DNA of 64,000 nucleotides, taken from the NCBI GenBank assembly GCA_964511175.1, contig CAZEEI010000006.1, forward strand, positions 73 to 64,072. The letters run 5' to 3'. Source of the stretch: an uncultured Pseudomonadales bacterium (lineage in GTDB: Bacteria > Patescibacteriota > Microgenomatia > UBA1400 > UBA1396). The notes under the pieces were generated by a model. That model had not been told where the DNA came from and searched no databases. It saw only the letters and a program-made list of their open reading frames with translations. Each line of letters opens with the position of its first letter. Position 1 is the first letter of the stretch. Positions 6,011 through 26,582 of the stretch are shown here, in pieces. The translations under genes and the position numbers were made by a program.

Positions 6011-6019
6011 TTGTCCCTT

Positions 6020-10892: not shown

Positions 10893-10894
10893 AT

Positions 10895-12079
10895 TTAGCC
10901 CAAGACCAGACGATAAACCTGCCGCAGCGCCTGCGCCGCCCGCTGCCAAGTCATTTGCTTGGCTTCCTGACTGACTTTTTGGCCTCGCTCCTGTTGTAGA
11001 GGTCGATTATGGATTAATTCGAGGATGGTGGCGGTCATCCGGTTGACGTCCCAAAAATCGATGGCATAAGCGTGCGGCAATACCTCCGCCACCCCGGCAC
11101 TTTTGGCCACAATTACTGGTGTTTCCGTCAGCGCTGCTTCCAAAGCAGAAATACCAAATGGTTCAGAAACCGAGGGCATCACAAAAACGTCTGCCCGTCG
11201 GTAGAGATAGTCCTTTTCACGGTCATGCAAGAAACCGGCAAATAAAACCGAGCCAGACATACCTTGGTAAGCTGAGCTGACTAGCAGCTGGTGATACATA
11301 TCGCCTTGGCCGGCAAAAACAAACACGGCATTTTTGACTTCGGTCAGAACTTGCCGCGCCACTGCTAAGAAATATTCCGGTCCCTTTTGGATCGTGAGCC
11401 GTCCCACAAAGACGATCACTGGCCGATCCTGCAAAAAATTGGGTAGAGCTTGGGTATGAAACTCCGGATTAGGGTCAACCCCGTTATAAACTACGTCGAT
11501 TTTATCCGCCGGGATACCGTAGTCCTGCACCAACTGCTGCTTGGTATAGTGACTAACTGCCACGACCCGATCGGCTCGATTTAACCCCCAGCGTTCAATG
11601 GCTTCGACCTGAGCGTGCGGCCAACCACCGCCGCTGCGATCCCGCGCGGTGCTATGAATATGCACCACTAGCGGGCGTTTGGTTTGTTGGCTAGCTTGTA
11701 CACCCGCGGGGATACTCATCCAATCATGGGCGTGCACTAGGGATGGCGAAAACTGCCGTGACACCTCTCCTACCACCTGCCCGTAACGTTCGACTTCGGT
11801 GATCATGTCCACCGGGTAAGAACGAGGTGAATCAACCGCGGATTGCCAGTATGGCTCCAAGTTGGCGTTTACTTGAATCATTGCCATTTCCAAACCGGGA
11901 GCATATTGATAATTGAGGCGGCGGTAAGCCTGTCCAGATGGATCATACTTAGGCAAAAAGAAAGCGATGGGTAGACCAGTAGTCAACAACCCGCGGGCTA
12001 AACCATGACAGGCCACCCCCAACCCGCCACTGTGATGGGGCGGAAATTCCCAACCAATCATTAAGACAGGTTTGTCCAT
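10895..12079 (-). CDS. glycosyltransferase GT4/GT5 (glycogen-synthase-like)
   Basis: N-terminal WEFPPHHSGGLGVACHGLARGL (GT-B, glycogen/starch synthase-like), C-terminal E-x7-E region; adjacent GH57 and GH15. Confidence 0.7.
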   Translation of the reverse strand: MDKPVLMIGWEFPPHHSGGLGVACHGLARGLLTTGLPIAFFLPKYDPSGQAYRRLNYQYAPGLEMAMIQVNANLEPYWQSAVDSPRSYPVDMITEVERYGQVVGEVSRQFSPSLVHAHDWMSIPAGVQASQQTKRPLVVHIHSTARDRSGGGWPHAQVEAIERWGLNRADRVVAVSHYTKQQLVQDYGIPADKIDVVYNGVDPNPEFHTQALPNFLQDRPVIVFVGRLTIQKGPEYFLAVARQVLTEVKNAVFVFAGQGDMYHQLLVSSAYQGMSGSVLFAGFLHDREKDYLYRRADVFVMPSVSEPFGISALEAALTETPVIVAKSAGVAEVLPHAYAIDFWDVNRMTATILELIHNRPLQQERGQKVSQEAKQMTWQRAAQALRQVYRLVLG

Positions 12080-12100
12080 GTGCTCGCCCTAAAAACGTGA

Positions 12101-13729
12101 TTAAGGCGAAATGCGCTCGGCCAAGATAATCACTACTGCCTGGCCTTCGGCCTCCGGCTCTTTAATTTGCGGGGCGCGCTTAAGTTCAACACCTAATTCT
12201 TCCGCCAGCACAGCAATGAGCTCTTCCCGATCGGTGAAAATGAAAGTGGCACCGTCGTAGGCACCCTCAGCGTTGCCCGTCTGGACTTTATTCCAACCGG
12301 CTTTATTTAACTTGGTCTTAACTCGACCAGCCAAACCAGCAACACCGGTGGCATTAAGAACCATAATCTTGGTTTGTTGTTTAACTTCCGAGGCCACCTG
12401 CGCCGATTCGCTGGCAACAGGCGTGGGAGTTGGCGCCGGGGTGGGTTCTGGCGTAGGAGTAACTAGCTGCGCTTCGGGTAACAAGGGCGGGCCTGGTGAC
12501 CAAACTTGTTTGGACCAGAGTATAGCTCCCCCAACTACACCAGTAATAATTGCTACCGCCAAGAAAACTAACACCGGTCCTCGCCAATTCGAGCGCTGTG
12601 GCACTTCCAAGTAACGGTCAGCGTTATCCTCTACTGCCACACTGGGCTGCAGTTGCGAAACCAAAACTGGTTCGGCCGGCTCTGGAACAGTAGGTACGAT
12701 CACTGATAGTAATTCTGGTTCGGGCTCTGCTTTTATTGGTGCTGATTTGACTGCATCTTCCGGCGGTTCTTCTTCTACTTCTACTTCGACTCTGACCGGT
12801 AAAGTCGGTCTAGGCAAATCTTCAGCAGCCGGCAGTTCTGGTAAATCTGGCTCAGGTAAAACCGGCTGAGATTTGGCTGGCGGGATTAGCGCTGGTTCAC
12901 TTTTGGTCTTTTTATTTTCGACCATCTCAAAGTGGAGTAGTTCCCCAAGAGTAGCCGCTCCTTTATCCATCACCGCCGCCACTACGGCACCTAAATCGGT
13001 GTTGGCATCCTCTGGTAGTAGAGCGTGTACGGCCACCGACTCACCCACCGCCTTGGTTACTTGCTCCTTAGTTTTAGCGTCACTGTGCAAATAAAGCAGG
13101 TGTGTTTCTTTACGTTCGGCTTGGCGTGATATGGCGTACTCACGCAGGTCCGGAACCGCAATTACCCGAGCGTCATCCACGCCCAAATAATGATGGGAAA
13201 CCAAGACCCGATCCGGCCTGAGTACTACGGCGATCAGGGCTGGCTCAACCGCCTTGAGCGAAGCCACAAACCAACCGAAAGGCATCAGCCAGGATTTCTT
13301 GGCTGCCAAAGCAGCTAACCAGGCCTCAATCCTTTGATAAACCTCTTTCTCCACACCAGAAACACTAACTTGCACTTCTTCTCTGCCGAGCGGGAAACGC
13401 TGGGAGGCAAATTCGTAAGCGGCTAAATCGATATGATGCTTTTTTTCGAGTAATTTGGCCAGATTATCATCGCTATACTGGTCTTTTTTATTAGGCACCA
13501 CCACTTGCAAATGGCCGCACGCCGCATCCGATACTAACGCCAAAACAGCGCCGTCTTGAACCTTACCGCGTAATTCGTCGTCAGGTAAATTGTCCAGACT
13601 GTAATGCCCAGATAGCTGCTCCCAGCTGTTTTTGTTTTGGACATAGACCAAAACATCACCATTATCAAAGAAAACTACCGTTCGGAAGGCAGGCGAAGCA
13701 CTCATGTGGACAGTATGACAATTCGGCAA
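12101..13729 (-). CDS. bitopic membrane protein with cytoplasmic N-domain, Pro/Glu-rich linker and extracellular LytR_C domain
   Basis: C-terminal IMVLNATGVAGLAGRVKTKLNKAGWNKVQTGNAEG...IFTD matches LytR_C (cell envelope attenuator C-terminal) pattern; one TM segment; PEPTPAPTPTP linker. Confidence 0.6.
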   Translation of the reverse strand: MPNCHTVHMSASPAFRTVVFFDNGDVLVYVQNKNSWEQLSGHYSLDNLPDDELRGKVQDGAVLALVSDAACGHLQVVVPNKKDQYSDDNLAKLLEKKHHIDLAAYEFASQRFPLGREEVQVSVSGVEKEVYQRIEAWLAALAAKKSWLMPFGWFVASLKAVEPALIAVVLRPDRVLVSHHYLGVDDARVIAVPDLREYAISRQAERKETHLLYLHSDAKTKEQVTKAVGESVAVHALLPEDANTDLGAVVAAVMDKGAATLGELLHFEMVENKKTKSEPALIPPAKSQPVLPEPDLPELPAAEDLPRPTLPVRVEVEVEEEPPEDAVKSAPIKAEPEPELLSVIVPTVPEPAEPVLVSQLQPSVAVEDNADRYLEVPQRSNWRGPVLVFLAVAIITGVVGGAILWSKQVWSPGPPLLPEAQLVTPTPEPTPAPTPTPVASESAQVASEVKQQTKIMVLNATGVAGLAGRVKTKLNKAGWNKVQTGNAEGAYDGATFIFTDREELIAVLAEELGVELKRAPQIKEPEAEGQAVVIILAERISP

Positions 13730-13749
13730 TAATTCTGCAAGTGAAATAT

Positions 13750-14610
13750 CTAGCGTCGCTTGCCTAGACGGACGCGGCTAATTCCCAGAGACAGGGCACC
13801 AAAGCCGATAATCGCCAGAGCTACGGTCTGGCCGGTGGAACCAGCCTGTGGCAGCTCCTCCGGCACTACGGTTGGCGTAGCCTCAACCGTGGTGGTACCA
13901 GTTGGCGTTGGAGTTGGGGTGGCAGCAGCGCAGGTACAATCGGTTTCCCCCGTGCATTGCGCGTTGCGGCAGTAACCTTCACTGCAGGTCAGGGTGCTGG
14001 GACAGTCGCTGTTGGTGTAGCAGTTGTCGTTACATTGTGGGTTCGGGGTTGGGGTGGGTGTCGCCGTAGGCGTTGGCGTTGGGGTTGGCGTAGGCGTTGG
14101 GGTTGGCGTAGGCGTTGGGGTAGGAGTTGGAGTCGGAATATAGAGGTAAGACTTACTGCAATTAGCCGACACACTCGCATCAGTAGCACAATAATCACCG
14201 GCACAAGGAATACAACGCACTGCCAAATAATCACCAGGCGTAATAGCTGGTGAAGTACTACTGGCACTATCGGCTATCTCGGTGTAAGCACCATCGGCCG
14301 TAGTCTGCTGCTGGAAAATATACCGATCCGTACCAGCGGCACCAGTACAGACAAAGGTCATGGCCGTACCTGGAACAAATTCTTGCGCTGTAGTTAATGA
14401 TAGACAAACGTTACCAATCTCAAATTGTAGCGAACAAATATTAGCGGCGGCGCGCGGACGGGAACTAGGTGCGGTTGGTGCCAGTGGACCACTGGCCTGG
14501 CGAATAAAGTAAACTACACCCAATAAGGCCGCCGTGAACACTAACAACGAAGCCGCTGCTACCGCAGTGCGTTGTTTCTTTAGCCAGATTTTTAGTTTAG
14601 TTAAGTCCAT
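13750..14610 (-). CDS. secreted Cys-containing protein with (TP)n linker and C-terminal sorting-like signal
   Basis: N-terminal signal/TM; TPTPTPTP x~20; C-terminus ELPQAGSTG + hydrophobic segment + RVRLGKRR. Confidence 0.6.
   Translation of the reverse strand: MDLTKLKIWLKKQRTAVAAASLLVFTAALLGVVYFIRQASGPLAPTAPSSRPRAAANICSLQFEIGNVCLSLTTAQEFVPGTAMTFVCTGAAGTDRYIFQQQTTADGAYTEIADSASSTSPAITPGDYLAVRCIPCAGDYCATDASVSANCSKSYLYIPTPTPTPTPTPTPTPTPTPTPTPTATPTPTPNPQCNDNCYTNSDCPSTLTCSEGYCRNAQCTGETDCTCAAATPTPTPTGTTTVEATPTVVPEELPQAGSTGQTVALAIIGFGALSLGISRVRLGKRR
14040..14140. repeat. tandem hexanucleotide-type repeat (GGCGTTGGGGTT...) encoding (TP)n
   Basis: seen directly; inside 13750-14610; produces mirror ORFs on other frames. 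Confidence 0.5.
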
Positions 14611-14629
14611 ATTTTGATTCTATTCGCTA

Positions 14630-17158
14630 TTACTCCAGAATACCTGAGTCAGTGGCCTCCTCCGTGGTTTCTGCCGAAGTAGTTGCTTCCTCAGTTTCCT
14701 CAGTCGACTCAGTTGAGGTTGGCGGTAACTCTGGGCCACCGATTGGGTCAGCCGTGGACTCCCAAATCTGACATAAATCGTTGGCGGCGCAGGGTCGGCA
14801 CTGTACAACATAGCGGCCTACCTGGGTAATGGCCAAATCCTGCGATTGGTTGCTCGTTGACGAGACTGGTGCCAGGCTAGTCCAAGTTAGGTTATCGTTC
14901 GTGCTGCTCTGGGTAAAGGCGTAACGGAAATCATAGCGGACAGCGTTAGTTACGGTAGCGCAAGTAAAGTTAACACTGTCCCCCAACTGAGGGTCGGCGT
15001 TGGAAGCAAAAATGTCAATACACATAGGTGCAGGCGGTTGTTCGCAGACACATTGTTCATTTTGCTCGCTAACCGGACATTGGGTAGAACGACAAACCCC
15101 ATCTAAACAAGACAGGCTGCCGCCAACACAGATTGCGTCGTTAGCGCCAGCTCCACAAGCCTGATTGCAACCGGCGGTGGGTGTATCATCATCCTCTTCT
15201 TCAGTAGTAGTAGTGGTAGTGATTGTTTCTTGCGATTGAGCCAGGGCGGTAGTGGTAGCCGGCACTATCGGGGCTGGGGTAATTGGTTTACCAGCGGCAC
15301 CGCAGGAATCAATACCAGCATCACCGATACAAGTAACAACACTATTTCCCGTCAAATCCTTACAGAAACAGTTGCGGCCATTGGCACAACCAACAAACTT
15401 GCCATTGCTTGGCTCGCCATTACTCTGCTGCGATATTCCTGCACTATTGCATTTGGCGCCTTCCGTAACTTCTGGTGCACAGGCATCAGACTTAACACAA
15501 TCAGCAGACAGCACTCCGGCTGAAGTACAAACACGCTGATGTTGAGCCGGACAATCGCCAGCCGCACCACAAGCGCCGCGATCACCACCACGCTGGGTAG
15601 TAATAATTTGTCCACCAGGAGCATAATCATTGGGAGGATAAATCATCCCCTGACGAATGCCTGGGTTACAGGGAGTGTCTTTCCCGCCAGCAATCGTTTG
15701 GCCCCTGGTTTCACCGCCGGTATAAAGACCGCCAGCACCACCATTCACATAATATGCGGTGCCGGTACCGTACTTCCCTAAAGCACTCGGGCTTAAACTA
15801 TTTGTACTTAAGAAAACAGGGTCGCCGTCATCGTCATAAAAACCAATCTTAGGTAGGCTGACACCAAGTACACTAATTGGTGAACCCGAAGTCGTAAGAC
15901 CACTCATCGTTTTTTTACTATCATAAATAGTAACTGCACTCCCTGTGTTGGTGCCAAATTCGGAATTACGAAATTCGTCGCGATCTATACAAATCGCACC
16001 GTTCTGGCCACCACTTGTTTTACAAGTAAATTGCAGGGTAAAAGAGCTGTTACAAACTGCTCCTTTAGCATCAGTATTGCAATAACTATCTGCCAAAGCC
16101 AACTCACCACACGCGCGTAATTCAACCTCACCCACGGCCTTTTTCTGACAATCGATAATACCCTGTTGAAGATCAACTTTTAGGTACCCATACTGCGTCC
16201 CCGCCAACTCCGGCCGCCCCATCTGGCTGGCACAACTGGCGTTCACTAACGTACCACATTTTTGGTTACATTCACCGTTAATCTTGATTCGCGAACAAGA
16301 ATACAGACCACCCGCGCCACCACAATACGCGTGAGAAGAATCCGTACTTTCCCAGTTTTTCAGTCCAGCACAGGGATCACTCCCTTGATCCGTACCATAA
16401 GGAAGAGGCATGTCACGAACTTCCGCCGAACCACCACTGATCACCGTACCGCCCGTAGCTGAAGTAAAGTTGGCCGGTAAAACACCACTCCAGTTACCGG
16501 TAGCCAAAGCCGTAGCATAAGCACTACCACCCACCGCACCAGCGTTAGGATCAGCGTTGTACTCATACCCCATCGCTGCAATCGCCTGTGCCTGCTGGTT
16601 ACCACTACCCACTAAAGTCTGAGCCTGGGCAATCTGCGCCTTTACCGCGTCGCTCTGATACATCGATGCAGAATTAACCACTTTCTGTCCGGCAGTCGCT
16701 GCTTGTTCACTGGTAAGCTGACCCAACTGCCGCATCGATTCGACAATCGCCAACTGACGCACGGCTTCCGCCGCCCGTTGGGCTGCATTAGTCTGGGCGT
16801 GCTGTGCCGTATCAGCCGCCGACTGCTGGGAAAGTTGCGCGGCGGCTTGCTGTAAACTCTGGTCGACCGCCGCATTAACCTGCTCGGTACTCATGCCTTC
16901 GGTATTAAACTGCGGCTGACCATTGCCCTGACCATCGCACCAAATTGGGTTGCCCCAACTACCATTGTCACAACGGTAAGCACAACCGTTACCAGCATTA
17001 CGCGACTCCGTACCACAAGATGCCCAACCGTCGCAACAGCACCAACCATCACAAGCGGCGCGCGCTACTTCAGCTCGGGATAAGACCAGCACCAAAACAC
17101 CAGCTGCCAGCACCAACTTGGTTAGAATGGTACTGGTTAGTTTTTTTCGATTGATCAT
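14630..17158 (-). CDS. large secreted Cys-rich protein (842 aa)
   Basis: signal peptide; N-terminal CDGWCCCDGWASCG module; Ala/Gln-rich region; several CxxxC...C modules; C-terminal domain shared with 13750-14610. Confidence 0.65.
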   Translation of the reverse strand: MINRKKLTSTILTKLVLAAGVLVLVLSRAEVARAACDGWCCCDGWASCGTESRNAGNGCAYRCDNGSWGNPIWCDGQGNGQPQFNTEGMSTEQVNAAVDQSLQQAAAQLSQQSAADTAQHAQTNAAQRAAEAVRQLAIVESMRQLGQLTSEQAATAGQKVVNSASMYQSDAVKAQIAQAQTLVGSGNQQAQAIAAMGYEYNADPNAGAVGGSAYATALATGNWSGVLPANFTSATGGTVISGGSAEVRDMPLPYGTDQGSDPCAGLKNWESTDSSHAYCGGAGGLYSCSRIKINGECNQKCGTLVNASCASQMGRPELAGTQYGYLKVDLQQGIIDCQKKAVGEVELRACGELALADSYCNTDAKGAVCNSSFTLQFTCKTSGGQNGAICIDRDEFRNSEFGTNTGSAVTIYDSKKTMSGLTTSGSPISVLGVSLPKIGFYDDDGDPVFLSTNSLSPSALGKYGTGTAYYVNGGAGGLYTGGETRGQTIAGGKDTPCNPGIRQGMIYPPNDYAPGGQIITTQRGGDRGACGAAGDCPAQHQRVCTSAGVLSADCVKSDACAPEVTEGAKCNSAGISQQSNGEPSNGKFVGCANGRNCFCKDLTGNSVVTCIGDAGIDSCGAAGKPITPAPIVPATTTALAQSQETITTTTTTEEEDDDTPTAGCNQACGAGANDAICVGGSLSCLDGVCRSTQCPVSEQNEQCVCEQPPAPMCIDIFASNADPQLGDSVNFTCATVTNAVRYDFRYAFTQSSTNDNLTWTSLAPVSSTSNQSQDLAITQVGRYVVQCRPCAANDLCQIWESTADPIGGPELPPTSTESTEETEEATTSAETTEEATDSGILE

Positions 17159-18057
17159 TATTTCACCTTACTAAAGTCAGCTGCCGCGAACCGGATACCT
17201 GGTTTATCTGGCTCACTGGGACTATCGGCACTAAAGAATACTTTAGGGTACTGAGTGCGTACGTCACCAGCAAACTTAGCTACAAAATATACTACACTAG
17301 ACTCTAGCCCTCGGTCGACCCTTTCGCCAGCATCACCGCGTTTGGCATCAGCCCCCTCGATCCACAGCACTGGCGCGTGATCTGCTACTATCGGGAAATC
17401 GTTTAGTGTGGCGTAAATTAAGGTTGAGTCACTCTTAGAATCGTAGGCCTGAAAAACAATGCCGCCAACGCCTAAGCTCTCTTGATAGTTGGGAAGAGTT
17501 TTATCCGAACCCAAATTGATTACTTTGGCTTTGGGATACAGCAGAGTTAATTGGTTAAACAGCGTGGCTTTTTCACTTTCCTTAATGGAGGGCGAAACAT
17601 TATCCGTACCCACACCAATCGTGCGATTCTCCGCCGCACTAGCCGGGCGGGAGGGTGTTTGTGTCACGGCTGTGCGGGAAGCTGAAGTCGGCCACAATAA
17701 CCAAATTAAACCGCCAACAATAACTAATAGACCAATCACCCCCAAAATAATCAGCTGGCGTCGATCGTTTGACTTAGAACCAACTGCAGTTTGACTGACC
17801 ACACCGGCTGTACTCGGCGTTTGCCCGCTTGGCTGCCCCAACAAACTATTCACTACCGGATTTTCCGCTGGGGATACTGGCTTAACTGGTGTCACCGGAC
17901 TGACCGGCAAAACACTAGGAACTGGCGTGGGTGTTAAAGTTGGCGCGGCGGCGGTATCGCCCGGCACGGATTGATAATAAGCGTTAACTGGCTTAGCCTG
18001 ACCCACTGAGGGTTCGGCGATGGGCTGGGTTTGGTCTTTTGGCAGGTCATTATCCAT
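17158..18057 (-). CDS. Pro-rich bitopic membrane protein (299 aa)
   Basis: 1-nt overlap with downstream gene; N-terminal Pro/Thr-rich, one TM, C-terminal globular domain. Confidence 0.5.
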   Translation of the reverse strand: MDNDLPKDQTQPIAEPSVGQAKPVNAYYQSVPGDTAAAPTLTPTPVPSVLPVSPVTPVKPVSPAENPVVNSLLGQPSGQTPSTAGVVSQTAVGSKSNDRRQLIILGVIGLLVIVGGLIWLLWPTSASRTAVTQTPSRPASAAENRTIGVGTDNVSPSIKESEKATLFNQLTLLYPKAKVINLGSDKTLPNYQESLGVGGIVFQAYDSKSDSTLIYATLNDFPIVADHAPVLWIEGADAKRGDAGERVDRGLESSVVYFVAKFAGDVRTQYPKVFFSADSPSEPDKPGIRFAAADFSKVK

Positions 18058-18117
18058 ATTTAATGGTTCACTCTAGAATAAGTATGACAAGAAAATGTTT
18101 GAGAGGCAAGATGAAAG

Positions 18118-19041
18118 TTACTCCATAGTAGGTGGTTGATTATCGGGGATTGTGGGTGGCATTACGGTTTTTGGTACATCAGTTGGTATGATTGGCTGCG
18201 GCGTCACCGATTTTGCCCCAGCAGCAACCGTTTTCCCCGAACGGCGGTATAAATAACCGACTAACACCAGAATGAACAGGCCTAGTCCTAAAACTAATGC
18301 CGCAGCGATTAGTCGGTTGCGGCTAGGCAAGGCCGGGCTTACCGAAACTGGTGCTGGGGTTGTTTCCGCCGTCACCTCTTCTGGCGCTTCAACTGCCGGT
18401 GTAGAATCAATAATCTCTGTCTGGGGTGTGACCGACGGCACCGGCACAGCGGTAACATCTTCATCACCAATAATGCTCTCTACGGCAATCGGTGGTGCTG
18501 GGGTTGCACTCGCCTGACCAGAAGCAGTGAGGGACACACCAGTCACTTTGCCCAGAACGTCCACTGCGTCGGCCTTGCGCAGCACCTGCGTTTGGGAAGT
18601 ATCAAAGGTAAGCTGCTTGGCAGTAAAAGCAGTCGTCGAACGCAGGGTGAGGGTGGCGATTTTAACTTCACCGTTAACGGTATAGCCGGTTGGTTCGGTA
18701 GTGAGACCAACAATATCGATCACCGTTTGGCCGTCAGCATTCACCGAAGACTGCACGGGAAACATCCAACCCAGACTGGCATTAGGTAAAATAGATACCA
18801 CATTCAAGTCATTGGGGCTGGGCGCGTCATAAGTAACACGGATGGCCACGCCGGTAATCGGTTGGGTGTCACTGGATAACACCACATCCACTTTAAAATC
18901 ACGGCCAGGCGAAGCCGTAGCGCTAGCGGGCACAAAACTTAAACTCGCTTTGCCACCAGACTGAAAAGCGGCAACCGGCGAAACCAAAACTAAGATCAAC
19001 AAACCAAAACCGGTGATTGCTTGGCAGGCTCTTTTTAACAT
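18118..19041 (-). CDS. cohesin-domain protein, membrane-anchored via C-terminal TM
   Basis: signal peptide; ~150 aa beta-sandwich matching cohesin pattern (GRDFKVDVVLSS...GVAIRVTYDAP..LNVVSI...IATLTLRSTTAFTAKQLTFD); PT/PAP linker; TM + YRRSGK. Confidence 0.6.
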   Translation of the reverse strand: MLKRACQAITGFGLLILVLVSPVAAFQSGGKASLSFVPASATASPGRDFKVDVVLSSDTQPITGVAIRVTYDAPSPNDLNVVSILPNASLGWMFPVQSSVNADGQTVIDIVGLTTEPTGYTVNGEVKIATLTLRSTTAFTAKQLTFDTSQTQVLRKADAVDVLGKVTGVSLTASGQASATPAPPIAVESIIGDEDVTAVPVPSVTPQTEIIDSTPAVEAPEEVTAETTPAPVSVSPALPSRNRLIAAALVLGLGLFILVLVGYLYRRSGKTVAAGAKSVTPQPIIPTDVPKTVMPPTIPDNQPPTME

Positions 19042-19043
19042 AT

Positions 19044-20771
19044 TTAGTCGCCCAGAACTTCCAACTTGTTATAACCAGACAGAATTAACGCGATGTCGGT
19101 AAAGGTAATGTTGCCATCACCATTAATATCGATAATCACTGATTCTGGTTTGTCACTAACGGGGGTAGTGAGTTTGGTCACATAAGTCATCATCTTGCCA
19201 AAGTCGACAATATTAATTTTATTATCATTATTAAAATCGCCGATGATGAGTTTCCATTCATCTTTATTGTGGCGGGGCAACTCGTTTAGCTTACCTTTAT
19301 ACAAGTAAACCTGCGTAAACTTGCGGCGCAAGGTGTTGTCACCCTTAACGGTAACGGTGTAGTAACCAGAGACAAAATCGTTCGGCAAAGAGCTGGTTAC
19401 GACCCGATAGCTGCTGGAGGTTGTATTCCAAGTAGCTTCCTGATTAGACAATTCGGCTACCACATCCGTAGCCGTTTCGACAGTAATTTTAACTTTGCGG
19501 GCACCAACGTTAGTGGTGATGCCTTTAACATTGAAGTTCAAACCGATGGTAGTTTCCGCCAAGAAATCCTTGACCTCGCTGTACCCATCTTCGCCAGCAA
19601 TGTTGTAAACCCAAACACGCACTGCCCCATTGGCAGTAGCTGGCACCGTGGCGACAATTTCGGTGTTAGTCCACTTCTTCACTGTTCCTAGAGCGGTACC
19701 AAAGTAGACATAATACTGAGTGGGACCAAAGTTGTAGCCTTTGATCGTCACGTCTGTACCGGCTGGTGCCGACGCCGGTGTCAAACTCTCCACTACTGGC
19801 TTGAGATTAACGTAATAGTAGCGGCTGATCGGATCAGAAAGATTATTCGCTGCATCGGTCACCTGGGCATGGATGGTGTTAAGACCATGCGGGCGAACTT
19901 TTTCGTATATCGGATCATTGGACCAAGCACTCCAAGAAACACCATCCTCACTGAAGCGATAACGCAGGAAACCGGGATAAGTAATGAGTGTGTCACTGGG
20001 CCGATCAGGCTTATCAACGGCCTTAACCGTAAACTTTATGTTGCGGTCAATAACGGTGCTGGCGGCAGCTGGACCTTGATCAAACTGAACCGTGGGTTTT
20101 TGGGTGTCATTAACAAAAGTTAGAGTCAGAGGCGGCACGGTTTGGAGAACATCCATACCAGCGTTGTCACCACTCTTGGCGATGGCGATGGCTTTGCCCG
20201 GATCTTGCTCTAAAGTGATTTGCCCTAGGGCGGTAGACATGAATGCAATGCGCGCAATTTTTACCCTGCCGGTGGCGGGAGTCTTGTAACCCGATGTACT
20301 TAGACAAGTTAAACTGAAATCGATGGTCACCTTTTTGTCGCCAGCCTTAGTTTCCCGTTCGACCGTGTTGATTTGGTCAGATAGGCAGGGATCAATACTA
20401 TCGGCCAAAGACAGGATTTGCGTGCCAGCCACATCTGCATTGAGGTCGATCACCATCAAATTGGGTGACGCACCAGCACCGGAGTTATAACCTATCTGAA
20501 AAGCTACACCGGATACTGCTGTACCCGCTGTATCCAAGTAGAGATCAACGAAAAAAATATCACCGCTATAACGACTGGTTGATTCTGTTTCCATGGTTAG
20601 CTTAACCGTGCCTAAAACCGAAGCAGCCCGGGAACGAACTTCCGTAGTCTCACCGCCCCCTTGGAAATAGTGTGAGAAGACATACCAACCGACGCCGCCG
20701 GTTAAGACCAAAAAGATAATACCGATCAGGGAATAAACCACCAGACGACCGCGCGTTAGTCTGTAAGACAT
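19044..20771 (-). CDS. multidomain surface protein with N-terminal cohesin-like module, Ig-like domains and C-terminal type-I dockerin
   Basis: C-terminal duplicated Ca-binding dockerin repeats IIGDFNNDNKINIVDFGKMM and IDINGDGNITFTDIALILSGY; N-terminal signal anchor; paralog at 31879-33615. Confidence 0.7.
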   Translation of the reverse strand: MSYRLTRGRLVVYSLIGIIFLVLTGGVGWYVFSHYFQGGGETTEVRSRAASVLGTVKLTMETESTSRYSGDIFFVDLYLDTAGTAVSGVAFQIGYNSGAGASPNLMVIDLNADVAGTQILSLADSIDPCLSDQINTVERETKAGDKKVTIDFSLTCLSTSGYKTPATGRVKIARIAFMSTALGQITLEQDPGKAIAIAKSGDNAGMDVLQTVPPLTLTFVNDTQKPTVQFDQGPAAASTVIDRNIKFTVKAVDKPDRPSDTLITYPGFLRYRFSEDGVSWSAWSNDPIYEKVRPHGLNTIHAQVTDAANNLSDPISRYYYVNLKPVVESLTPASAPAGTDVTIKGYNFGPTQYYVYFGTALGTVKKWTNTEIVATVPATANGAVRVWVYNIAGEDGYSEVKDFLAETTIGLNFNVKGITTNVGARKVKITVETATDVVAELSNQEATWNTTSSSYRVVTSSLPNDFVSGYYTVTVKGDNTLRRKFTQVYLYKGKLNELPRHNKDEWKLIIGDFNNDNKINIVDFGKMMTYVTKLTTPVSDKPESVIIDINGDGNITFTDIALILSGYNKLEVLGD

Positions 20772-20825
20772 ACTGGTTTTATGCTACGCGATTAATGGTG
20801 GAAGTGTCAATCAAGGTAAATTTTG

Positions 20826-20899
20826 TGCGCGCACAGGGACTCGAACCCCGAACCGCGAAGGTATAAGCTTCGTGCTCTAACCAATTGAGCTATGCGCGC
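20826..20899 (-). tRNA. tRNA-Ile, anticodon UAU (TAT)
   Basis: manual cloverleaf fold: 7-bp acceptor GCGCGCA/TGCGCGC, D-arm GCTC..GAGC, anticodon stem CGAAG/CTTCG with loop CTTATAC, 5-nt variable loop, T-arm CGGGG-TTCGAGT-CCCTG; no encoded CCA. Confidence 0.7.
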
Positions 20900-20900
20900 C

Positions 20901-20978
20901 CTTAGGGTGTCACCCTCCAGAGGTAAAATGAATCAGGGTGTCACCCTAAAATTTTTTACCTCTGGAGGGTGACACCTT
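20901..20978. repeat. REP family B element (AGGGTGTCACCCTCCAGAGGTAAAA ... TTTTACCTCTGGAGGGTGACACC nested palindrome)
   Basis: seen directly; abuts the 5' end of tRNA-Ile. Confidence 0.65.
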
Positions 20979-20981
20979 ACA

Positions 20982-21551
20982 TTATACGATAAAAGCCCAA
21001 AAAAGGAGGCTAACTAAGACTAGGAGCCCTACTATGGCCACTATTCCTAGTATCACCGGCAAACGACCACTGAGAACTGAAACCGGTTGGGCGGCGGCTG
21101 GAATAGGTGTGACTGTGGCCACCGGCTGAAACTCAGGGATGGGCGTAACCACCACTGCCCCTTCATAAGCTCGTTGGCGAATTTCCTGAGACTGCTGGGT
21201 TAAAACGGTGGCCGAACCAACCCCCACCACTAGTAATAAGATTGCAACTAGACCACTAACTAGGCGCAAATCGATTTTAGGCAAACGGCGCTGACGCTCG
21301 GAAAGACTACTGGATAACAAATGAGCAGTGTCGGTCACGCTTGGTTCGGATGGCTCCGGACCAGCGGTGGGCAAGGATGCTGGGACGGGCGCCGCGGGTA
21401 GACGAGGTGTTAGTTGAACATCTAAATTGTCGGTACCGGCGGAAAGCGGCGTTTCCCACCCCGCGGCACCCGCACTGTCCATCCGCGGGTAAGGTGTCGA
21501 GTCACCTTCGATTTCTCGCAAAACAGTATCTAAACTCGATGGTGTGTTCAT
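20982..21551 (-). CDS. Pro/Ala-rich bitopic membrane protein
   Basis: 189 aa, central TM, C-terminal TM. Confidence 0.5.
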   Translation of the reverse strand: MNTPSSLDTVLREIEGDSTPYPRMDSAGAAGWETPLSAGTDNLDVQLTPRLPAAPVPASLPTAGPEPSEPSVTDTAHLLSSSLSERQRRLPKIDLRLVSGLVAILLLVVGVGSATVLTQQSQEIRQRAYEGAVVVTPIPEFQPVATVTPIPAAAQPVSVLSGRLPVILGIVAIVGLLVLVSLLFWAFIV

Positions 21552-21553
21552 AT

Positions 21554-22972
21554 TTAATCGTGATCTGACTTACCCGCCAAACGATTGCTCCAAACACCAA
21601 CTCCTAAAAAGACTAGTGCTAACCCCGTCAACCAAGCTAGAGGCCAACTAGTACCGGAAACTGGTTGCTGCTGCATTCCTACTGCCGGCGTCGGCTCCGG
21701 CGTAATCAGTGGCGTTGGGGTTGGAGCGGGAGTGGGCAAAACGGTTGGTACAGGAGTAGGCGTTGCGATCACACCTGAAGGAGTGGCCGTAAAAGCCGGT
21801 ACACCGGTGCTGGCTTGCACAATAAAATTACGCTCAACGGTTTGCAAAACACCATTAGCATCGGTGTAAGACACGGTGATGGTGTGCTGTCCTGGCTCCA
21901 AATTGCCAGGCGGCACCCACGTCCAAGTACCGTCGGCGTTAGCTTGGGCGGTACCGTCATAATTTGTCTCAGAGTGAACCTGAATTTGCAGTTGAGTATT
22001 AGGCGGTGCTTTGCCACTGAATTCAGGTCGATCCGTACTGATCGTTTCTCCCTCAGTAACCGAAGTGATCTGAACCGGAGTAGCACTATCTACCTGGTTA
22101 CCCTCTCCCTCGGAAAATAATGAGCCAAGCGCCGAACCGGCTGTATTGCTGGTAACGGCACTGGCAGTCGCTGTCGACTCCGCTAGCGCCTGAGGTTCCT
22201 GACCAAAACGCAAATCGTAAAGCGGCGACAAGTCCTGAGCCATGGCCGTCAACTCCAGTGTTTGGTTGCGCGCTGTGCCTACTGCTTGGATACGCACACT
22301 GGTGTCACCAGTTAAGGAAAACAGCGCCGAAAGGTCAGTCGTACGTACGGTAGAGATCGGCACCGCCCAGCTGCCGTTAGTCTTAACCAAGGCCGACAAC
22401 GGCGAAGCGCCCTGAATAGACAAGTAAAGGATCGCTCCCTCCGCCGGATTGCCGACTTCATTATTCAAGTTACCGTAGGCGGTTTGAGCCTCGGGCGGAT
22501 TTTGCAAGCGCTGAGCCGTACGAACTGCAAAAGACTGGCCGCGATTGTCGAACAAATTGCGCGAACCGGTACCGATTTGAAAATAATACTGGGTAGTCGG
22601 CTGCAGCCCTCTTACCGACACGTGGTGAGTGGTGTACTCACTACTGCCGCCGGTCAACTGGTCGCGGTCATCGGCCACTTGCAGAGGTAGACGATTGGTT
22701 TCCTGGCCGTATTTAATATAGCCAGGCGAGGCAGTATCGGTTAAAAAGGAAACGGTAAAACCAGTGTCGGTGATGTTGGTAATCCTCACTTGTTTGGGGG
22801 TGGCACCTTCGGCCGCCCTGGGCAAAAACCCACCTGTCCCTTGACCAACCAGAACAATGCCAACTACCACTCCTAGCGCCAAAATACCTAGCCCCAGCAA
22901 AGTGGGGATACGTTTGGCCAACAAACCACCAACGCCAGCTGGTTTCGTCAAAGTGGGCATACCTATCTTCAT
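21554..22972 (-). CDS. surface protein with FN3-like and bacterial Ig-like domains, PT-rich stalk and C-terminal anchor
   Basis: N-terminal TM; PKQVRITNITDTGFTVSF...QYYFQIG FN3-like; Ig-like domain; PTPVPTVLPTPAPTPTP; C-terminal QPVSGT + hydrophobic + RLAGKSDHD. Confidence 0.6.
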   Translation of the reverse strand: MKIGMPTLTKPAGVGGLLAKRIPTLLGLGILALGVVVGIVLVGQGTGGFLPRAAEGATPKQVRITNITDTGFTVSFLTDTASPGYIKYGQETNRLPLQVADDRDQLTGGSSEYTTHHVSVRGLQPTTQYYFQIGTGSRNLFDNRGQSFAVRTAQRLQNPPEAQTAYGNLNNEVGNPAEGAILYLSIQGASPLSALVKTNGSWAVPISTVRTTDLSALFSLTGDTSVRIQAVGTARNQTLELTAMAQDLSPLYDLRFGQEPQALAESTATASAVTSNTAGSALGSLFSEGEGNQVDSATPVQITSVTEGETISTDRPEFSGKAPPNTQLQIQVHSETNYDGTAQANADGTWTWVPPGNLEPGQHTITVSYTDANGVLQTVERNFIVQASTGVPAFTATPSGVIATPTPVPTVLPTPAPTPTPLITPEPTPAVGMQQQPVSGTSWPLAWLTGLALVFLGVGVWSNRLAGKSDHD

Positions 22973-22984
22973 GGTAGCGGGGAA

Positions 22985-23332
22985 TCAAGTCCCCGGCAAT
23001 AGCTCCTCCCCAGCCGGCAATGGAACCAACGGCAGCAACGCCCCTTCAGCGGTGCCCTGCGGTGATTCGGCTATGGTAATTATTTCGCGCAAATGTTGTC
23101 TAGCCTCATCAACGGTAACGTATTGTTTTTTTTCCAGAGTTTCGATCGTTTTTAAATCAATCAGGGGGTTAAGCGGTTCAATCAGTTGTTTGATCCCGGC
23201 TGGCAGAGTAGTACGCTGCGTACTAAGGTAAAGCTCAATACCGATACCCACTGCTACCGTCAGTAAACCTAGAGTCAGGGCGGCTACTACTACCCGTTGA
23301 CGGAGAATGCCGCCATAAGTCAATCGTCTCAT
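22985..23332 (-). CDS. small bitopic membrane protein (PilP-position)
   Basis: 115 aa, N-terminal TM, 4-nt overlap with upstream gene. Confidence 0.4.
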   Translation of the reverse strand: MRRLTYGGILRQRVVVAALTLGLLTVAVGIGIELYLSTQRTTLPAGIKQLIEPLNPLIDLKTIETLEKKQYVTVDEARQHLREIITIAESPQGTAEGALLPLVPLPAGEELLPGT

Positions 23333-24054
23333 TTCTCCTCCCCCACAATAGCCGTATCAGAGTCTTTAGCTTTAGTACCTGCGGCGCGAGCCGGTGCTTG
23401 TTTAGGCTGATAGCCATAAAGAAACAGTGTGGCGTTAACCAAAATAACCGGTTCCTTATTGCGCTCCTCTCGCACTGTTACCGAAAAACCATTCACCGCC
23501 AATAGCGGACGGACACTTTCGATCGTGCGGAAGAAACGTTGAATACTCCCTAAATCACCTTCAAAGGTAATCTGAATACTGTAAATACCGATTTCACTTT
23601 TGTTGAGCAGGGCCAAATCGCTGGCCGCCGCCGGAGTTTGCCCGGTGGACAAATCTACCGGAAAGTTTTTGATCTGTAGGCCGACTAAACTAGCATCGGC
23701 GGCGGCGGCCAAATACTCCAAATAAAATAAGGCGTTCTCTAAAGATAACTGCTGGTGAACCGCGGTAGCCAAAACGGGAAAACGGCTCTTGTAGGTATAG
23801 TAGTCGCTTTGCGCCGTGGAGAGGGCGGCAATTTTTTTACTTAATTCTTGGTCCACTACTCGCTTTTCTTCGATTTCCCGCACTAAACTCGACATCGTAT
23901 TTAGCGTAGGGCGCAGGGCAAAAAGGGCAAAAAAGATTACCGTGGTCAAAGAAAGGAAAAGCTCCAGCGAAACCCGCGTAACTGGTTTTTCGTAAAACTG
24001 CTGCAAATTATTGCGCAGTGATTGAGCCGAAATAAAGCTGCGTTGTTGCGCCAT
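23329..24054 (-). CDS. PilO-like bitopic membrane protein (tentative)
   Basis: short cytoplasmic N-terminus, TM, coiled-coil, C-terminal globular domain; overlaps neighbours by 1-4 nt. Confidence 0.45.
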   Translation of the reverse strand: MAQQRSFISAQSLRNNLQQFYEKPVTRVSLELFLSLTTVIFFALFALRPTLNTMSSLVREIEEKRVVDQELSKKIAALSTAQSDYYTYKSRFPVLATAVHQQLSLENALFYLEYLAAAADASLVGLQIKNFPVDLSTGQTPAAASDLALLNKSEIGIYSIQITFEGDLGSIQRFFRTIESVRPLLAVNGFSVTVREERNKEPVILVNATLFLYGYQPKQAPARAAGTKAKDSDTAIVGEEK

Positions 24055-24725
24055 TAGGGCTTTCCCCCTTGTATTTCCAACTGATCGGACAATCCTTTTT
24101 GATAAATCACCGACAAAGAAAAAGTGACACCGGGATCACGTTGGTCGCCGCTTTGGATTTCGCTAATCGAAATCTGTCCCAAATCTGGTTGGGATTGAAT
24201 ACCTTTAATCAGCAAAGCCAGTGATTGGTTGGATTTGGCTTTACCTTGCAAGGTTAGCCTTTCGCCGGACAAATTAATCTGACCGTAGGAAATATCCGGC
24301 GGCGTCACTTTGGTCAGTGTATCCAACACTTGCCAGCGTCCTTGGGTTGAAAGAATGAAAGCGATGTCCTTGGTGCGGCGTTGAATCGCCCGAAAATCCT
24401 GTTCCAGTGTACCGTAGGATTCGGCAATGGCCTGTTTCTGCACAATCGAAGTATTGAGATCGGTAAGTTGCCGATCCAACACGAAACGCGAAAAAAAGCT
24501 GCCAATGACCACTAACTCGGTAAAGATCACAATGTGTCGTCCTACTCCCACCGCCCATCGCAAAATTTTGCCAACTACCGTGGCATAGAAAGGGTCCTCC
24601 GGGTAAAAATTTAACGCCGGGACTAAAACCTTCTTTCGACCGGTTCGATTAAGCAGGCCTGTAAACATAACCGTATGTTCAGTATACCCTGCCCGGTACC
24701 GCGTATAATAGCCCCATGGTGCCAT
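24054..24725 (-). CDS. PilN-like bitopic membrane protein (tentative)
   Basis: VLVPALNFYPED motif (cf. PilN INLLP) before single TM, periplasmic domain; first gene of the 20 kb co-directional array. Confidence 0.45.
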   Translation of the reverse strand: MAPWGYYTRYRAGYTEHTVMFTGLLNRTGRKKVLVPALNFYPEDPFYATVVGKILRWAVGVGRHIVIFTELVVIGSFFSRFVLDRQLTDLNTSIVQKQAIAESYGTLEQDFRAIQRRTKDIAFILSTQGRWQVLDTLTKVTPPDISYGQINLSGERLTLQGKAKSNQSLALLIKGIQSQPDLGQISISEIQSGDQRDPGVTFSLSVIYQKGLSDQLEIQGGKP

Positions 24726-25162
24726 TACTGGATAACCGCCGCGCCCGCCACGAATACGAACTGCTGGATACTTATGATGCCGGCCTGGTTCTGTTGGGTG
24801 GCGAAGTGAAAATGCTGCGCGGCCGGCACGGTTCTCTGGCCGGTAGCCACGTCCGGGTTATCCAGGGAAAGCCGATTTTGCTCAACGCCCAAATTCCGCC
24901 CTATCCTTATGCCCGCCTAGAAAACTACGATCCCAAACGCACCCGCCAACTGCTGCTTAAAAAAAATGAGATTCTCCAACTGCAACAAGCCCAAGATACT
25001 AAGGGTCTAACCCTAGTGCCAGTAATGATCGGTTTGGCCGGCCGACATTTAAAACTGCGGCTAGCGATTGCGCGCGGTAAAAAACTACACGACCGGCGCG
25101 AAGAACTCCGCCGCCGTGACCTATCACGCCAAGCGGCAGCCGAATTGAAGCGCCGGCGATAA
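24716..25162 (+). CDS. smpB: SsrA-binding protein
   Basis: RARHEYELLDTYDAGLVLLGGEVKMLR ... LLLKKNEILQL ... AIARGKKLHDRREELRRR, classic SmpB. Confidence 0.85.
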   Translation: MVPLLDNRRARHEYELLDTYDAGLVLLGGEVKMLRGRHGSLAGSHVRVIQGKPILLNAQIPPYPYARLENYDPKRTRQLLLKKNEILQLQQAQDTKGLTLVPVMIGLAGRHLKLRLAIARGKKLHDRREELRRRDLSRQAAAELKRRR

Positions 25163-25210
25163 AGAGTTTCCCACCAAAAAAAAAGACCCCGGTTTCCCGG
25201 AGCCTAGTTA

Positions 25211-25241
25211 GGGGGTCTGACCCTAGACAGGGTCAGACCCC
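25211..25241. terminator. perfect 13-bp-stem hairpin (REP family A single unit GGGGGTCTGACCC-TAGA-CAGGGTCAGACCCC) followed by T5; likely bidirectional terminator
   Basis: seen directly between convergent smpB and 25254-25454 gene. Confidence 0.5.
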
Positions 25242-25253
25242 TTTTTAACCGTT

Positions 25254-25454
25254 TTATCTCTTGCGGCGCAAAACCGGCATGCCGGTGCGAGCCGTTTCGA
25301 CTACTTCGAAACCAGCTGGCAATTCGTCAATCGCACCAGGACGGACGTCGCGGGCAAAGAAGTAAATCGGACGAGTGATGCCGTTTTTGAGCGTCACCAT
25401 CTTTTGGTGCAGATAGTAAGTCTGACCTTTCTTATTAGTGTAGGAAAAAGCCAT
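25254..25454 (-). CDS. hypothetical small basic protein (66 aa)
   Basis: ORF with upstream AGGGAG-like RBS region. Confidence 0.4.
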   Translation of the reverse strand: MAFSYTNKKGQTYYLHQKMVTLKNGITRPIYFFARDVRPGAIDELPAGFEVVETARTGMPVLRRKR

Positions 25455-25577
25455 CTTTATCCTTTCTTTCCTTTTTCTCCCTCAGGGATTAACTTCCAAC
25501 ATACTTGAGGTTACGCCAGGACGCAAGAGGCAACCTGTTATGAGATCCAATTTCGCCCGTTTTTTACTCGAGTAAGA

Positions 25578-26219: not shown

Positions 26220-26245
26220 TTTTTTACCTACTGCGCATTGTAATA

Positions 26246-26572
26246 CTAAACTTGACCTTCCGGCCAAACAATTTTACCGGTGGTTACATCTTGAATTACG
26301 ATCGCCAATACCGGGCAGCTTTGCGCGGCTAAAAGCTTAATTTCGTCCGCTTCATCCTGGGTTAAAACTTCGGCAATATTTTCTTTATCAAACTGTAGAA
26401 CTTTGGGGGCAATAGCAATACAACTGCCGGCCGAAATACACTTGGAACGAAGCATAAAAACTTTATATTTACCAGGCATACCGGTGTCAACCGTCTGGAC
26501 GTCATCACTCTGCAGGATAGCGGGCAGCGCCGAGTTGGCAGCAGGTTGGTTGGGTTGGGATAGATCAGCCAT
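26246..26572 (-). CDS. mono-cluster [3Fe-4S]/[4Fe-4S] ferredoxin
   Basis: CISAGSCIAIAP ... CPV cysteine pattern; AGGAGG RBS 5 nt upstream of ATG at 26572. Confidence 0.65.
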   Translation of the reverse strand: MADLSQPNQPAANSALPAILQSDDVQTVDTGMPGKYKVFMLRSKCISAGSCIAIAPKVLQFDKENIAEVLTQDEADEIKLLAAQSCPVLAIVIQDVTTGKIVWPEGQV

Positions 26573-26582
26573 TATTCCTCCT

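Follow-up and report, generated by a model that had tools for sequence, protein, structure and literature searches.

The window analysed here is a 64-kb stretch of DNA, and our subject is a run of minus-strand genes at positions 12101-24725 within it, made up of 11 protein genes and one tRNA-Ile(UAU) gene. The run opens with homologues of PilN and PilO, membrane proteins of the type IV pilus machinery, and closes with a membrane protein that ends in a LytR_C domain. The original prediction spoke of fifteen consecutive minus-strand genes; the unbroken run is real, but 12101-24725 accounts for only 11 protein genes and the tRNA, and fifteen protein genes are reached only if four glycogen-type genes down to 6711 are counted in. 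That continuation into a glycogen-type cluster was confirmed by Pfam, which recognises a GT4/GT5 synthase-like protein, GH57, GH15 and a BadF-type ATPase at 6711-12079 (minus strand); this cluster lies outside the envelope module described below, and two small open reading frames (ORFs) beyond it extend the unbroken run to 5777. The genes had also been said to overlap by 1-4 nt or to be separated by less than 25 nt, which is true of most junctions (an overlap or a gap of at most 21 nt) but not of five wider gaps: 82 nt between p189, a Pro-rich protein, and the tRNA, 53 nt between the tRNA and a 575-aa gene, 60 nt between a 307-aa and a 299-aa gene and, further downstream, 66 nt between GH15 and BadF and 43 nt between BadF and the next ORF. 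All 11 proteins of the run carry at least one transmembrane (TM)-like or signal-like segment, in keeping with the envelope or surface character first assigned to the whole run. Upstream of PilN lies an SmpB gene in divergent orientation. Relatives of the PilN protein bear source names such as "Candidatus Woesebacteria bacterium", which places the organism among Microgenomatia-type bacteria of the Candidate Phyla Radiation.

The best-supported explanation of this arrangement is that the locus is a composite of at least four same-strand units and not one operon encoding a machine. The first unit (24668-21554) would be a four-gene membrane module of PilN, PilO, a small protein that we call X, and an FN3/Ig protein. 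The second would join the subclade-specific p189 to the tRNA-Ile(UAU), which apparently has a -10 box of its own and which is followed by a terminator in relatives. The third (20771-13750) would be a variable cassette downstream of the tRNA, in which a probable cohesin/dockerin pair is followed by an orphan membrane protein and then by a pair of Cys-rich and LPXTG-type proteins. The fourth (13705-12101) would consist of the single gene for a protein with a predicted cytoplasmic GspL/PilM-like domain, a TM helix and LytR_C.

The PilN homologue (24054-24668, minus strand) is a bitopic protein that matches Pfam PF05137 at 2e-12, above the cut-off, and PilN of M. xanthus in the PDB at 7e-4 by profile. 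Its start is placed at M20 (position 24668) by homology, including to a 100% identical protein of 204 aa (P0001). The protein is laid out as a cytoplasmic N-terminus, a TM helix (GRHIVIFTE), a coiled coil and the PilN domain. An alignment of orthologues reveals a conserved motif, P-x-(I/L)-N-(L/F)-(Y/F)-P-x-D-P-F, in the cytoplasmic N-terminus, which we take to resemble the INLLP-type peptide bound by PilM, and a TM helix that is nearly invariant. The family is a large one, with more than 1,190 related protein clusters (1,193 matches in a search with the PilN alignment); the best 120 of these 1,193 matches are all orthologues, with no PilN paralogues from pilus loci among them. The start of the bitopic PilO/GspM homologue (23329-24054, minus strand) overlaps the PilN stop by 1 nt. 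Taken by itself, this protein gives only sub-threshold matches (Pfam T2SSM_b at 0.0075; NCBIfam GspM at 6.8e-6, below the cut-off). A profile of 68 orthologues nevertheless finds M. xanthus PilO (3jc8) at 1e-7 and P. aeruginosa PilO (2rjz) at 0.005, and the orthologues carry a precomputed PF04350 annotation. The two PilN/PilO-like openers of the run have withstood the remote-homology check.

The third gene overlaps the end of the PilO gene by 4 nt and encodes X, a single-pass membrane protein of 115 aa (22985-23332, minus strand); the first three genes of the module are translationally coupled. X belongs to a family kept after PilO and has no match in Pfam or NCBIfam, and its extramembrane part bears a short conserved motif (..PL.P.ID......LE..). 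The idea that X might be a PilP analogue was rejected, as we found nothing in its support. The fourth gene (21554-22972, minus strand) encodes what we describe as an FN3/Ig surface strut, identified by Pfam (Pur_ac_phosph_N at 9e-11, Big_13 at 4e-10). Its N-terminal TM helix, with P, T, G, L and G positions invariant in the family alignment, is followed by FN3, then by a beta-rich domain in the centre and a Big_13 Ig domain, after which a PT linker leads to an LPXTG-like C-terminus. An assignment of the central domain as an HR domain was dropped as unsupported, the PDB profile matches being limited to the FN3 part. The C-terminal signal reads QPVSG followed by a hydrophobic helix in the window, and [LIVQ]P x [S/T/A] G S .. 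T.AL..GGLFF in the family; 42 of 66 members have xPx[STA]G, another 19 have xx[STA]GS variants, and the member from locus L060 has the canonical LPQTG. This C-terminus, like that of a 286-aa protein of the cassette, looks like a sortase-type sorting signal as far as its sequence goes, and no anchor model in Pfam or NCBIfam matches either one. Taken together, the PilN motif and the invariant or nearly invariant TM helices of PilN, PilO and the FN3/Ig protein point to a conserved complex within the membrane.

At the far end of the run, about 9 kb from PilN and PilO, lies the gene of a membrane-anchored protein (12101-13705, minus strand; start at 13705). Its actin-like cytoplasmic domain (aa 1-267) is connected by a Pro/Glu-rich linker to a TM helix (aa 381-407), beyond which a PT linker leads to an extracytoplasmic LytR_C domain, found by Pfam at 5.6e-12 as had been predicted. 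The first 267 aa have no match in Pfam, in NCBIfam, or in the PDB by a 10-sequence profile, and Pfam finds no PilM in the protein; these sequence-only searches gave nothing, and the identity of the domain was resolved only by structure prediction. The AlphaFold2 (AF2) model of the 267-aa domain (pLDDT 76, pTM 0.74) has two halves of beta-beta-beta-alpha-beta-alpha type. When the model was compared with the PDB by Foldseek, the best match was the cytoplasmic domain of V. cholerae EpsL (1yf5; E-value 7e-11, TM-scores 0.61/0.67, root-mean-square deviation (rmsd) 4.4 Å), followed in order of E-value by PulL (5tkw), P. aeruginosa PilM (5eox, 2.3e-10) and V. vulnificus GspL (4pht, 3.1e-10). The matches to 1yf5, 5tkw and 4pht span E-values of 7e-11 to 3e-10 and TM-scores of 0.58-0.71 at an rmsd of about 4.2 Å. 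Further PilM chains and then FtsA rank below these GspL and PilM matches, and both 5eou (PilM:PilN1-12) and 2ych (PilM-PilN) are among the PDB entries listed. The last gene of the run is therefore predicted, from this model, to encode a cytoplasmic GspL/PilM-like domain joined through a TM helix to LytR_C. The statement that no PilM is nearby was true of Pfam and sequence searches; at the level of the predicted fold it no longer holds.

The extracytoplasmic part also matches Rv0431 in the PDB (2m5y, 7e-4) and, weakly, the NCBIfam model Cei (3e-5). LytR_C is present here as an accessory domain only, the catalytic LCP domain being absent from the protein. An exhaustive hidden Markov model search over 1.84 billion representatives recovered 42 clusters of the family, against only 4 fragments from a word-indexed search. 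Of 26 family members tested, 25 retain the LytR_C end; a weak match to T2SSL (0.003) was seen in a single member.

To follow these genes through relatives we compared about 150 related loci in all: 80 gathered with the PilN alignment, together with contigs from exact look-up, and 62 around the GspL-like gene, gathered with a 5-sequence alignment. Of the 80 loci, 77 carry PilN, 76 PilO, 68 X and 65 FN3/Ig, always in the same order, with PilO next after PilN in 76 of the 77 and with median gaps of 2 nt (PilN-PilO), -4 nt (PilO-X) and 100 nt (X-FN3/Ig). The four-gene block is conserved throughout Microgenomatia-type Patescibacteria. The rest of the run does not share this constancy: the claim of one dedicated super-operon fails here, since synteny across the 80 loci keeps only PilN, PilO, X and FN3/Ig and the run splits in relatives. 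Many records of Patescibacteria metagenome-assembled genomes met in this comparison are titled "uncultured Pseudomonadales bacterium", and one "TM6", so that record titles are unreliable for taxonomy. Directly upstream of PilN, on the same strand and at a median gap of 44 nt, 66 of 77 loci carry MurJ, whose identity was established by Pfam in two members (2e-60 to 6e-77). The window's subclade has SmpB and DsbA upstream of PilN in place of MurJ, and the most divergent subfamily has UvrD there and keeps the four module genes. MurJ as a fifth member of the module was rejected for this reason, as it is missing from both of these groups.

What could such a module do? Considering the homologies, the predicted fold and the synteny, we judge it on balance somewhat probable that the core and the GspL/PilM-like protein form an alignment platform of the type IV filament kind, tethered to the cell wall and serving a pilus motor encoded elsewhere in the genome. 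PilN and PilO would associate by way of their TM, coiled-coil and ferredoxin-like regions, as happens in the machines of type IV pili and of type II secretion. In the known systems PilM binds a short cytoplasmic part of PilN, PilM and PilN together equal GspL, PilN-PilO corresponds to GspL-GspM, and GspL anchors the ATPase (PMC4471445). By analogy, the INLxP-type N-terminal peptide of our PilN may dock on an actin-like domain of PilM/GspL type, for which the protein of the fourth unit is the candidate, and this domain might in turn hold a PilB/GspE-type ATPase encoded elsewhere. Core and GspL/PilM-like-LytR_C protein would then supply all three parts of the alignment platform of a type IV filament. 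The CPR (Candidate Phyla Radiation) bacteria are thought to lack an outer membrane (PMC6744442), and PilMNO is also found in Gram-positives (PMC4471445). With neither outer membrane nor secretin, LytR_C and the FN3/Ig protein would fasten the complex to the cell wall. The N-terminal helix of the FN3/Ig protein would stay in the membrane complex, and its LPXTG-like C-terminus would be fixed at or within the wall; LytR_C and this strut would take the place of the Gram-negative PilP and secretin. The physical contacts, the tethering and the link to a distant motor are what we infer here. A motor elsewhere would suit the published record, in which genes for type IV pili are common among CPR bacteria, small-celled Microgenomatia and Paceibacteria included (PMC6744442, PMC8672522), and are present in most small-celled Patescibacteria (PMC8672522). 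The pilus PilM of CPR has itself been named a "GspL domain" protein (PMC6744442).

Several observations weigh against such a platform. The AF2 model of the GspL-like domain was built on an alignment of 5 sequences and reaches a pLDDT of 76. In this domain the first beta-hairpin, the phosphate-binding element of actin-like ATPases, shows no conservation, as would suit a GspL-like, non-catalytic domain, and the extracytoplasmic part is LytR_C and not the ferredoxin-like domain of GspL. The gene lies near PilN and PilO only in the Woesebacteria subclade; in distant Microgenomatia it directly precedes the operon for the F-type ATP synthase (atpB, atpE and others) on the same strand in about 30 loci (among L087, L088 and L090-L149), and no genes for PilN, PilO, FN3/Ig, PilC, PilD, a PilB/PilT-type ATPase or pilins were found within 10 kb of it in these distant loci (62 loci, 0.8 Mb). 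Sortase-type anchoring is read from the motif, and no sortase appeared among the 50 window proteins scanned with Pfam, a set comprising the 11 genes of the run and other larger ORFs, with several ORFs below about 165 aa left out. No class III signal-peptide (pilin) motif and no GspE/PilB-type Walker A motif occurs in any frame of the 64-kb window, in agreement with the earlier remark that neither pilin nor ATPase is nearby, and the 10 kb around the PilN module in 86 loci (1.33 Mb) likewise yielded no pilin motif, PilB/PilT-type Walker A, PilC or PilD. In many CPR genomes, finally, PilB, PilC, PilM, PilN, PilO and PilT are found co-localised (PMC6744442). Pilus genes likewise lie together in loci of Saccharibacteria (PMC12206443). 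Pfam finds no PilB, PilC, PilT, PilD or PilM among the same 50 window proteins. The prepilin regular-expression matches in the second set of loci were discarded as false positives, being ATP synthase c subunits. The window lacks a detectable pilin, ATPase, platform protein, prepilin peptidase and sortase, so that the locus indeed corresponds to no canonical type IV pilus, sortase-pilus or S-layer locus.

The constant separation from pilus genes and the frequent linkage to MurJ suggest another reading, namely a pilus-independent envelope scaffold, co-opted in Microgenomatia, that with or without the GspL-like-LytR_C protein works together with MurJ lipid II export and wall anchoring and organises the insertion or tethering of surface proteins. 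We consider this unlikely, though it is the strongest competitor. MurJ stands upstream on the same strand in those 66 of 77 loci, nowhere in the 1.33 Mb of flanking sequence do pilins or ATPases accompany the module, and its fixed FN3/Ig partner bears an LPXTG-like signal. Sortases use lipid II as acceptor. Cys-rich proteins of LPXTG type follow the module in close relatives and in the distant L015, L081 and L085, LytR_C is otherwise wall-associated (Cei, LCP proteins), and sugar transferase and Wzy-like genes lie downstream of the module in a subset of loci. Set against this, PilN keeps an N-terminal motif of the PilM-binding type, the linkage to MurJ is missing in the window's clade and in the most divergent subfamily and may be plain housekeeping synteny (S20, LepA, SmpB), and there is no sortase nearby. 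To our knowledge, moreover, every characterised PilN, PilO, GspL or GspM works in a type IV filament machine. A review of the PilMNO and Gsp proteins is consistent with their exclusive type IV filament role (PMC4471445). In a more definite version, to which we give slightly less credence still, proteins of PilN, PilO and GspL type would have been detached from the pilus and rebuilt with X, the strut and LytR_C as a membrane-wall scaffold coupled to MurJ and lipid II export, there to position or anchor surface proteins. Were the module pilus-independent, the platform would have been re-used for another envelope task, and this would be the first case of the PilN/PilO family outside a type IV filament machine.

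A single co-transcribed super-operon from 24725 to 12101, perhaps to 6711, encoding one surface-assembly machine, is in our view very improbable. The shared strand, the tight spacing at most junctions, the membrane or secreted nature of all products and the PilM-like gene that brackets the run together with PilN and PilO would all suit it, as would the lack of any strong terminator called within the run of the window. The signals and gene content around the tRNA speak otherwise. The gene for p189 (20982-21551, minus strand), a 189-aa Pro-rich protein with two TM segments and no Pfam or NCBIfam family, is confined to the Woesebacteria subclade, where it follows the module in only nine close relatives, together with the tRNA. 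The tRNA-Ile(UAU) gene (20825-20899, minus strand; ARAGORN, and Rfam at 69 bits), correctly placed inside the array on the same strand from the outset, has the same position and strand in L003, L005 and L007-L013 and marks the border between the conserved and the variable parts of the run. The stop codon of p189 sits within a conserved GTATAAT (about 20979-20990), which lies 10-11 nt before the tRNA in L005 and L007 and which, to judge by its sequence, appears to be the -10 box of the tRNA itself. Directly after the tRNA, five of the nine close relatives (L003, L008, L010, L012 and L013) have a hairpin and T-run; the terminator scanner calls the hairpin of L003 and misses those of L010 and L013, which are flanked by A/T runs and visible in the raw sequence. 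A promoter-like site, TTGACA-18-TAGCAT (20781-20810, minus strand), lies 10 nt upstream of the 575-aa gene; it is a consensus match only, at 10/12, and one of the two best sites (both 10/12) in 6000-25600.

Gene content tells the same story against the super-operon, as the genes that fill the interval from the tRNA to the GspL-like gene vary with each relative. In L008, L011 and L012 the GspL-like gene comes directly after the tRNA with no cassette, L003, L005, L007, L009 and L013 have the Cys-rich/PT pair after the tRNA, and the window genome alone has the dockerin/cohesin pair and the 299-aa gene there. In distant relatives the GspL-like gene is located elsewhere altogether. GT4 and GH57 follow the GspL-like-LytR_C gene in L007, L008 and L012. 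Together, these consensus-level signals and the synteny argue against one transcription unit, and they counsel that long same-strand runs in compact CPR genomes should not be read as operons.

Least probable of all is a type II secretion-like exporter, in which the GspL-like, PilO/GspM-like and PilN proteins would carry Cys-rich and dockerin proteins through the wall with pseudopilins and ATPase encoded elsewhere. In its favour, GspL cytoplasmic domains are the best structural matches, ahead of PilM, the PilO homologue has a weak GspM match and secreted proteins are encoded next door. Against it, the window showed no secretin, GspC, GspE, GspF or pseudopilin, relatives do not keep the cargo-like genes beside the module, and Sec-exported proteins would need no second-step exporter in CPR cells thought to be without an outer membrane (PMC6744442).

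Compared with the PilMNO(P) proteins of type IVa pili, among them the PilMNO sets of Gram-positive and CPR pilus loci, the locus has in common an adjacent, bitopic and translationally coupled PilN and PilO, an INLxP-type PilN N-terminus, and a predicted actin-like protein of PilM/GspL fold in the same genome region. It differs in that no pilM stands directly upstream of PilN, and in that the PilM-like domain is membrane-anchored, fused to LytR_C and without a conserved hairpin, whereas PilM is a soluble, ATP-binding protein. It also differs in that the module is never beside pilB, pilC, pilT, pilD or pilin genes (within 10 kb), and in its two fixed extra partners, X and the LPXTG-like FN3/Ig protein, with MurJ often upstream. 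The resemblance to the GspL-GspM pair of type II secretion lies in the best fold matches of the fourth unit (cytoplasmic EpsL, PulL and GspL), in the GspM-like character of the PilO homologue, and in the order of cytoplasmic domain, single TM helix and extracytoplasmic domain. LytR_C replaces the ferredoxin-like domain of GspL, however, PilN is a separate protein, GspC, D, E, F and pseudopilins are not found in the window, and the host is probably monoderm. Like mycobacterial LytR_C proteins (Cei/Rv2700, Rv0431) and the C-termini of LCP proteins, to which its sequence matches are weak, the protein of the fourth unit places an extracytoplasmic LytR_C after a TM helix; unlike them it has a large additional cytoplasmic GspL-like domain, and it has no LCP catalytic domain. 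With the LPXTG/sortase proteins of Gram-positive bacteria, the FN3/Ig and 286-aa proteins appear to share a tripartite C-terminal signal of LPXTG-like motif, hydrophobic helix and short tail, canonical as LPQTG in orthologues, but Thr is mostly Ser or Ala, Pro is lost in a third of the FN3/Ig orthologues, no sortase was found in the window, and FN3/Ig adds a conserved N-terminal TM helix.

The PilN label of this family is already known from databases. No literature description was found of the four-gene module as a unit, of its systematic separation from pilus genes, or of the GspL-like-LytR_C fusion, and a literature search for LytR_C together with PilM returned nothing. The bacteria of the CPR/Patescibacteria depend on surface structures for attachment to their hosts, and their envelope machinery is hardly known outside Saccharibacteria. 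To this picture our analysis adds a widespread PilN-PilO-X-FN3/Ig module (more than 1,000 protein clusters), labelled only "PilN" in databases, its consistent separation from pilus genes, and a hidden GspL/PilM-like protein, predicted by its fold, that is fused to LytR_C. If the platform is what we propose, it offers a model in which an ultrasmall, monoderm cell fastens a platform of the type IV filament kind to the wall with no secretin.

The variable cassette between the tRNA and the GspL-like gene begins with a secreted or anchored dockerin protein of 575 aa (19044-20771, minus strand; Pfam TIG at 1.5e-15 and Dockerin_1 at 3e-6), in which an N-terminal TM or signal segment is followed by a cohesin-like domain, TIG, a beta-rich region and a C-terminal dockerin. 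The neighbouring cohesin-like anchored protein of 307 aa (18118-19041, minus strand) has a signal peptide, a cohesin-like domain, a linker and a TM anchor. The cohesin that had been proposed here gains moderate support at the fold level and none from Pfam, which gives no match: nearly all of the top 30 Foldseek matches of the AF2 model (pLDDT 71.5) are cohesin modules (E-values 2e-4 to 1e-2, TM-scores 0.4-0.5), and a profile finds scaffoldin cohesins in the PDB weakly, at 0.08. The 307-aa protein is likely the docking partner of the dockerin protein. The FN3/Ig, dockerin and LytR_C domains of the run, by comparison, were all recovered by Pfam as first named. A paralogous pair lies at 30949-33615 (minus strand; Pfam and alignments), consisting of a 578-aa protein with TIG and dockerin (31879-33615) and a 306-aa cohesin-like anchored protein (30949-31869). 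The Dockerin_1 model (PF00404, cut-off 22.9 bits) scores 27.8 bits at 19044-20771 and 30.4 bits at 31879-33615, the two pairs are 35-38% identical, and the dockerin proteins are 38% identical. The pair at 30949-33615 has an orthologue at the same position in L007, which makes the pair at 18118-20771 the newer insertion. As in cellulosomal systems, a dockerin protein stands beside a membrane-anchored protein of predicted cohesin-like fold, here with the pair duplicated in the genome, but the dockerin protein has only cohesin-like and TIG domains and no glycoside hydrolase or carbohydrate-binding module, and the cohesin is seen at the fold level only, with moderate scores. A cohesin-dockerin pair with no enzyme modules is unusual in a CPR genome.

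The cassette continues with a 299-aa single-pass membrane protein (17158-18057, minus strand) that has a Pro-rich cytoplasmic N-terminus and no Pfam match, an orphan with no homologue in any of the relative loci compared. The last two genes encode the Cys-rich and PT-repeat proteins that had been described, and both descriptions are accurate: a secreted protein of 842 aa with a signal segment and 45 Cys (14630-17158, minus strand), and a protein of 286 aa with 15 Cys and a PT repeat (13750-14610, minus strand). Read from their translations, the two share an Ig-like, Cys-bracketed module and a CxxxC-rich knot. The 286-aa protein ends in LPQAG, a TM helix and the basic tail RVRLGKRR, and the 10 members of its family end in LPEAG, LPQAG, LPKSG or the canonical LPQTG. 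Homologues of the 842-aa protein occur in L003, L005, L007, L009 and L013 and in the distant L015, L081 and L085; in the latter three, Cys-rich LPXTG-type relatives of the 842- and 286-aa proteins lie directly after the module (L015 13499-18878, L081 5488-9236, L085 13492-19734), and their occurrence in three distant lineages hints at a recurrent association. A conserved block upstream of the run, at 25254-27326 (minus strand) and found also in L003, L005 and L007-L013, encodes a DsbA/MdbA-like thiol oxidoreductase, a highly conserved 66-aa protein (76-91% identity between relatives), a ferredoxin and a reductase resembling FNR. Such a thiol oxidoreductase is in keeping with the disulfide-rich secreted proteins of the neighbourhood.

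Between the p189 stop codon, with its TATAAT, and the tRNA lies a palindrome of about 80-90 nt (about 20892-20982), resembling a repetitive extragenic palindromic (REP) element, that folds as RNA at -54.8 kcal/mol (z = -9.5) and is missing at the p189-tRNA site in relatives. It belongs to a family with five copies in the window (20892-20982, 45729-45789, 59545-59647, 60683-60745 and 61200-61298). The core of the family is AGGGTGTCACCCTCCAGAGGT ... ACCTCTGGAGGGTGACACCCT; the copies are intergenic, look like REP or miniature inverted-repeat transposable elements, and in two cases adjoin tRNA genes (tRNA-Ile and tRNA-Tyr). A second family of palindromic repeats, GGGGTCTGACCC ... GGGTCAGACCCC, is found at 7659-7737, 25200-25244, 47108-47186 and 47647-47698, again in intergenic positions, among them the 66-nt gap between GH15 and BadF and the space downstream of SmpB. 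As to the tRNA itself, ATA makes up 25 of the 273 Ile codons in the run, and most bacteria decode AUA by a lysidine-modified CAU tRNA, unlike the UAU-anticodon tRNA-Ile found here.

Elsewhere in the window there are further unusual envelope or surface proteins, namely a 624-aa protein (40812-42686, plus strand) of which only the first 277 aa are a prolipoprotein diacylglyceryl transferase (Lgt) domain, and a 1,042-aa protein (47698-50826, minus strand) in which the F5/8 type C (discoidin) domain occurs twice. A gene for a Y1 transposase of IS200-like type is found at 39245-39721 (plus strand), and patches of low GC content (35-41%, against about 50%) at 1-2000, 52000-58000 and 62000-64000 suggest mobile or acquired DNA in the window.

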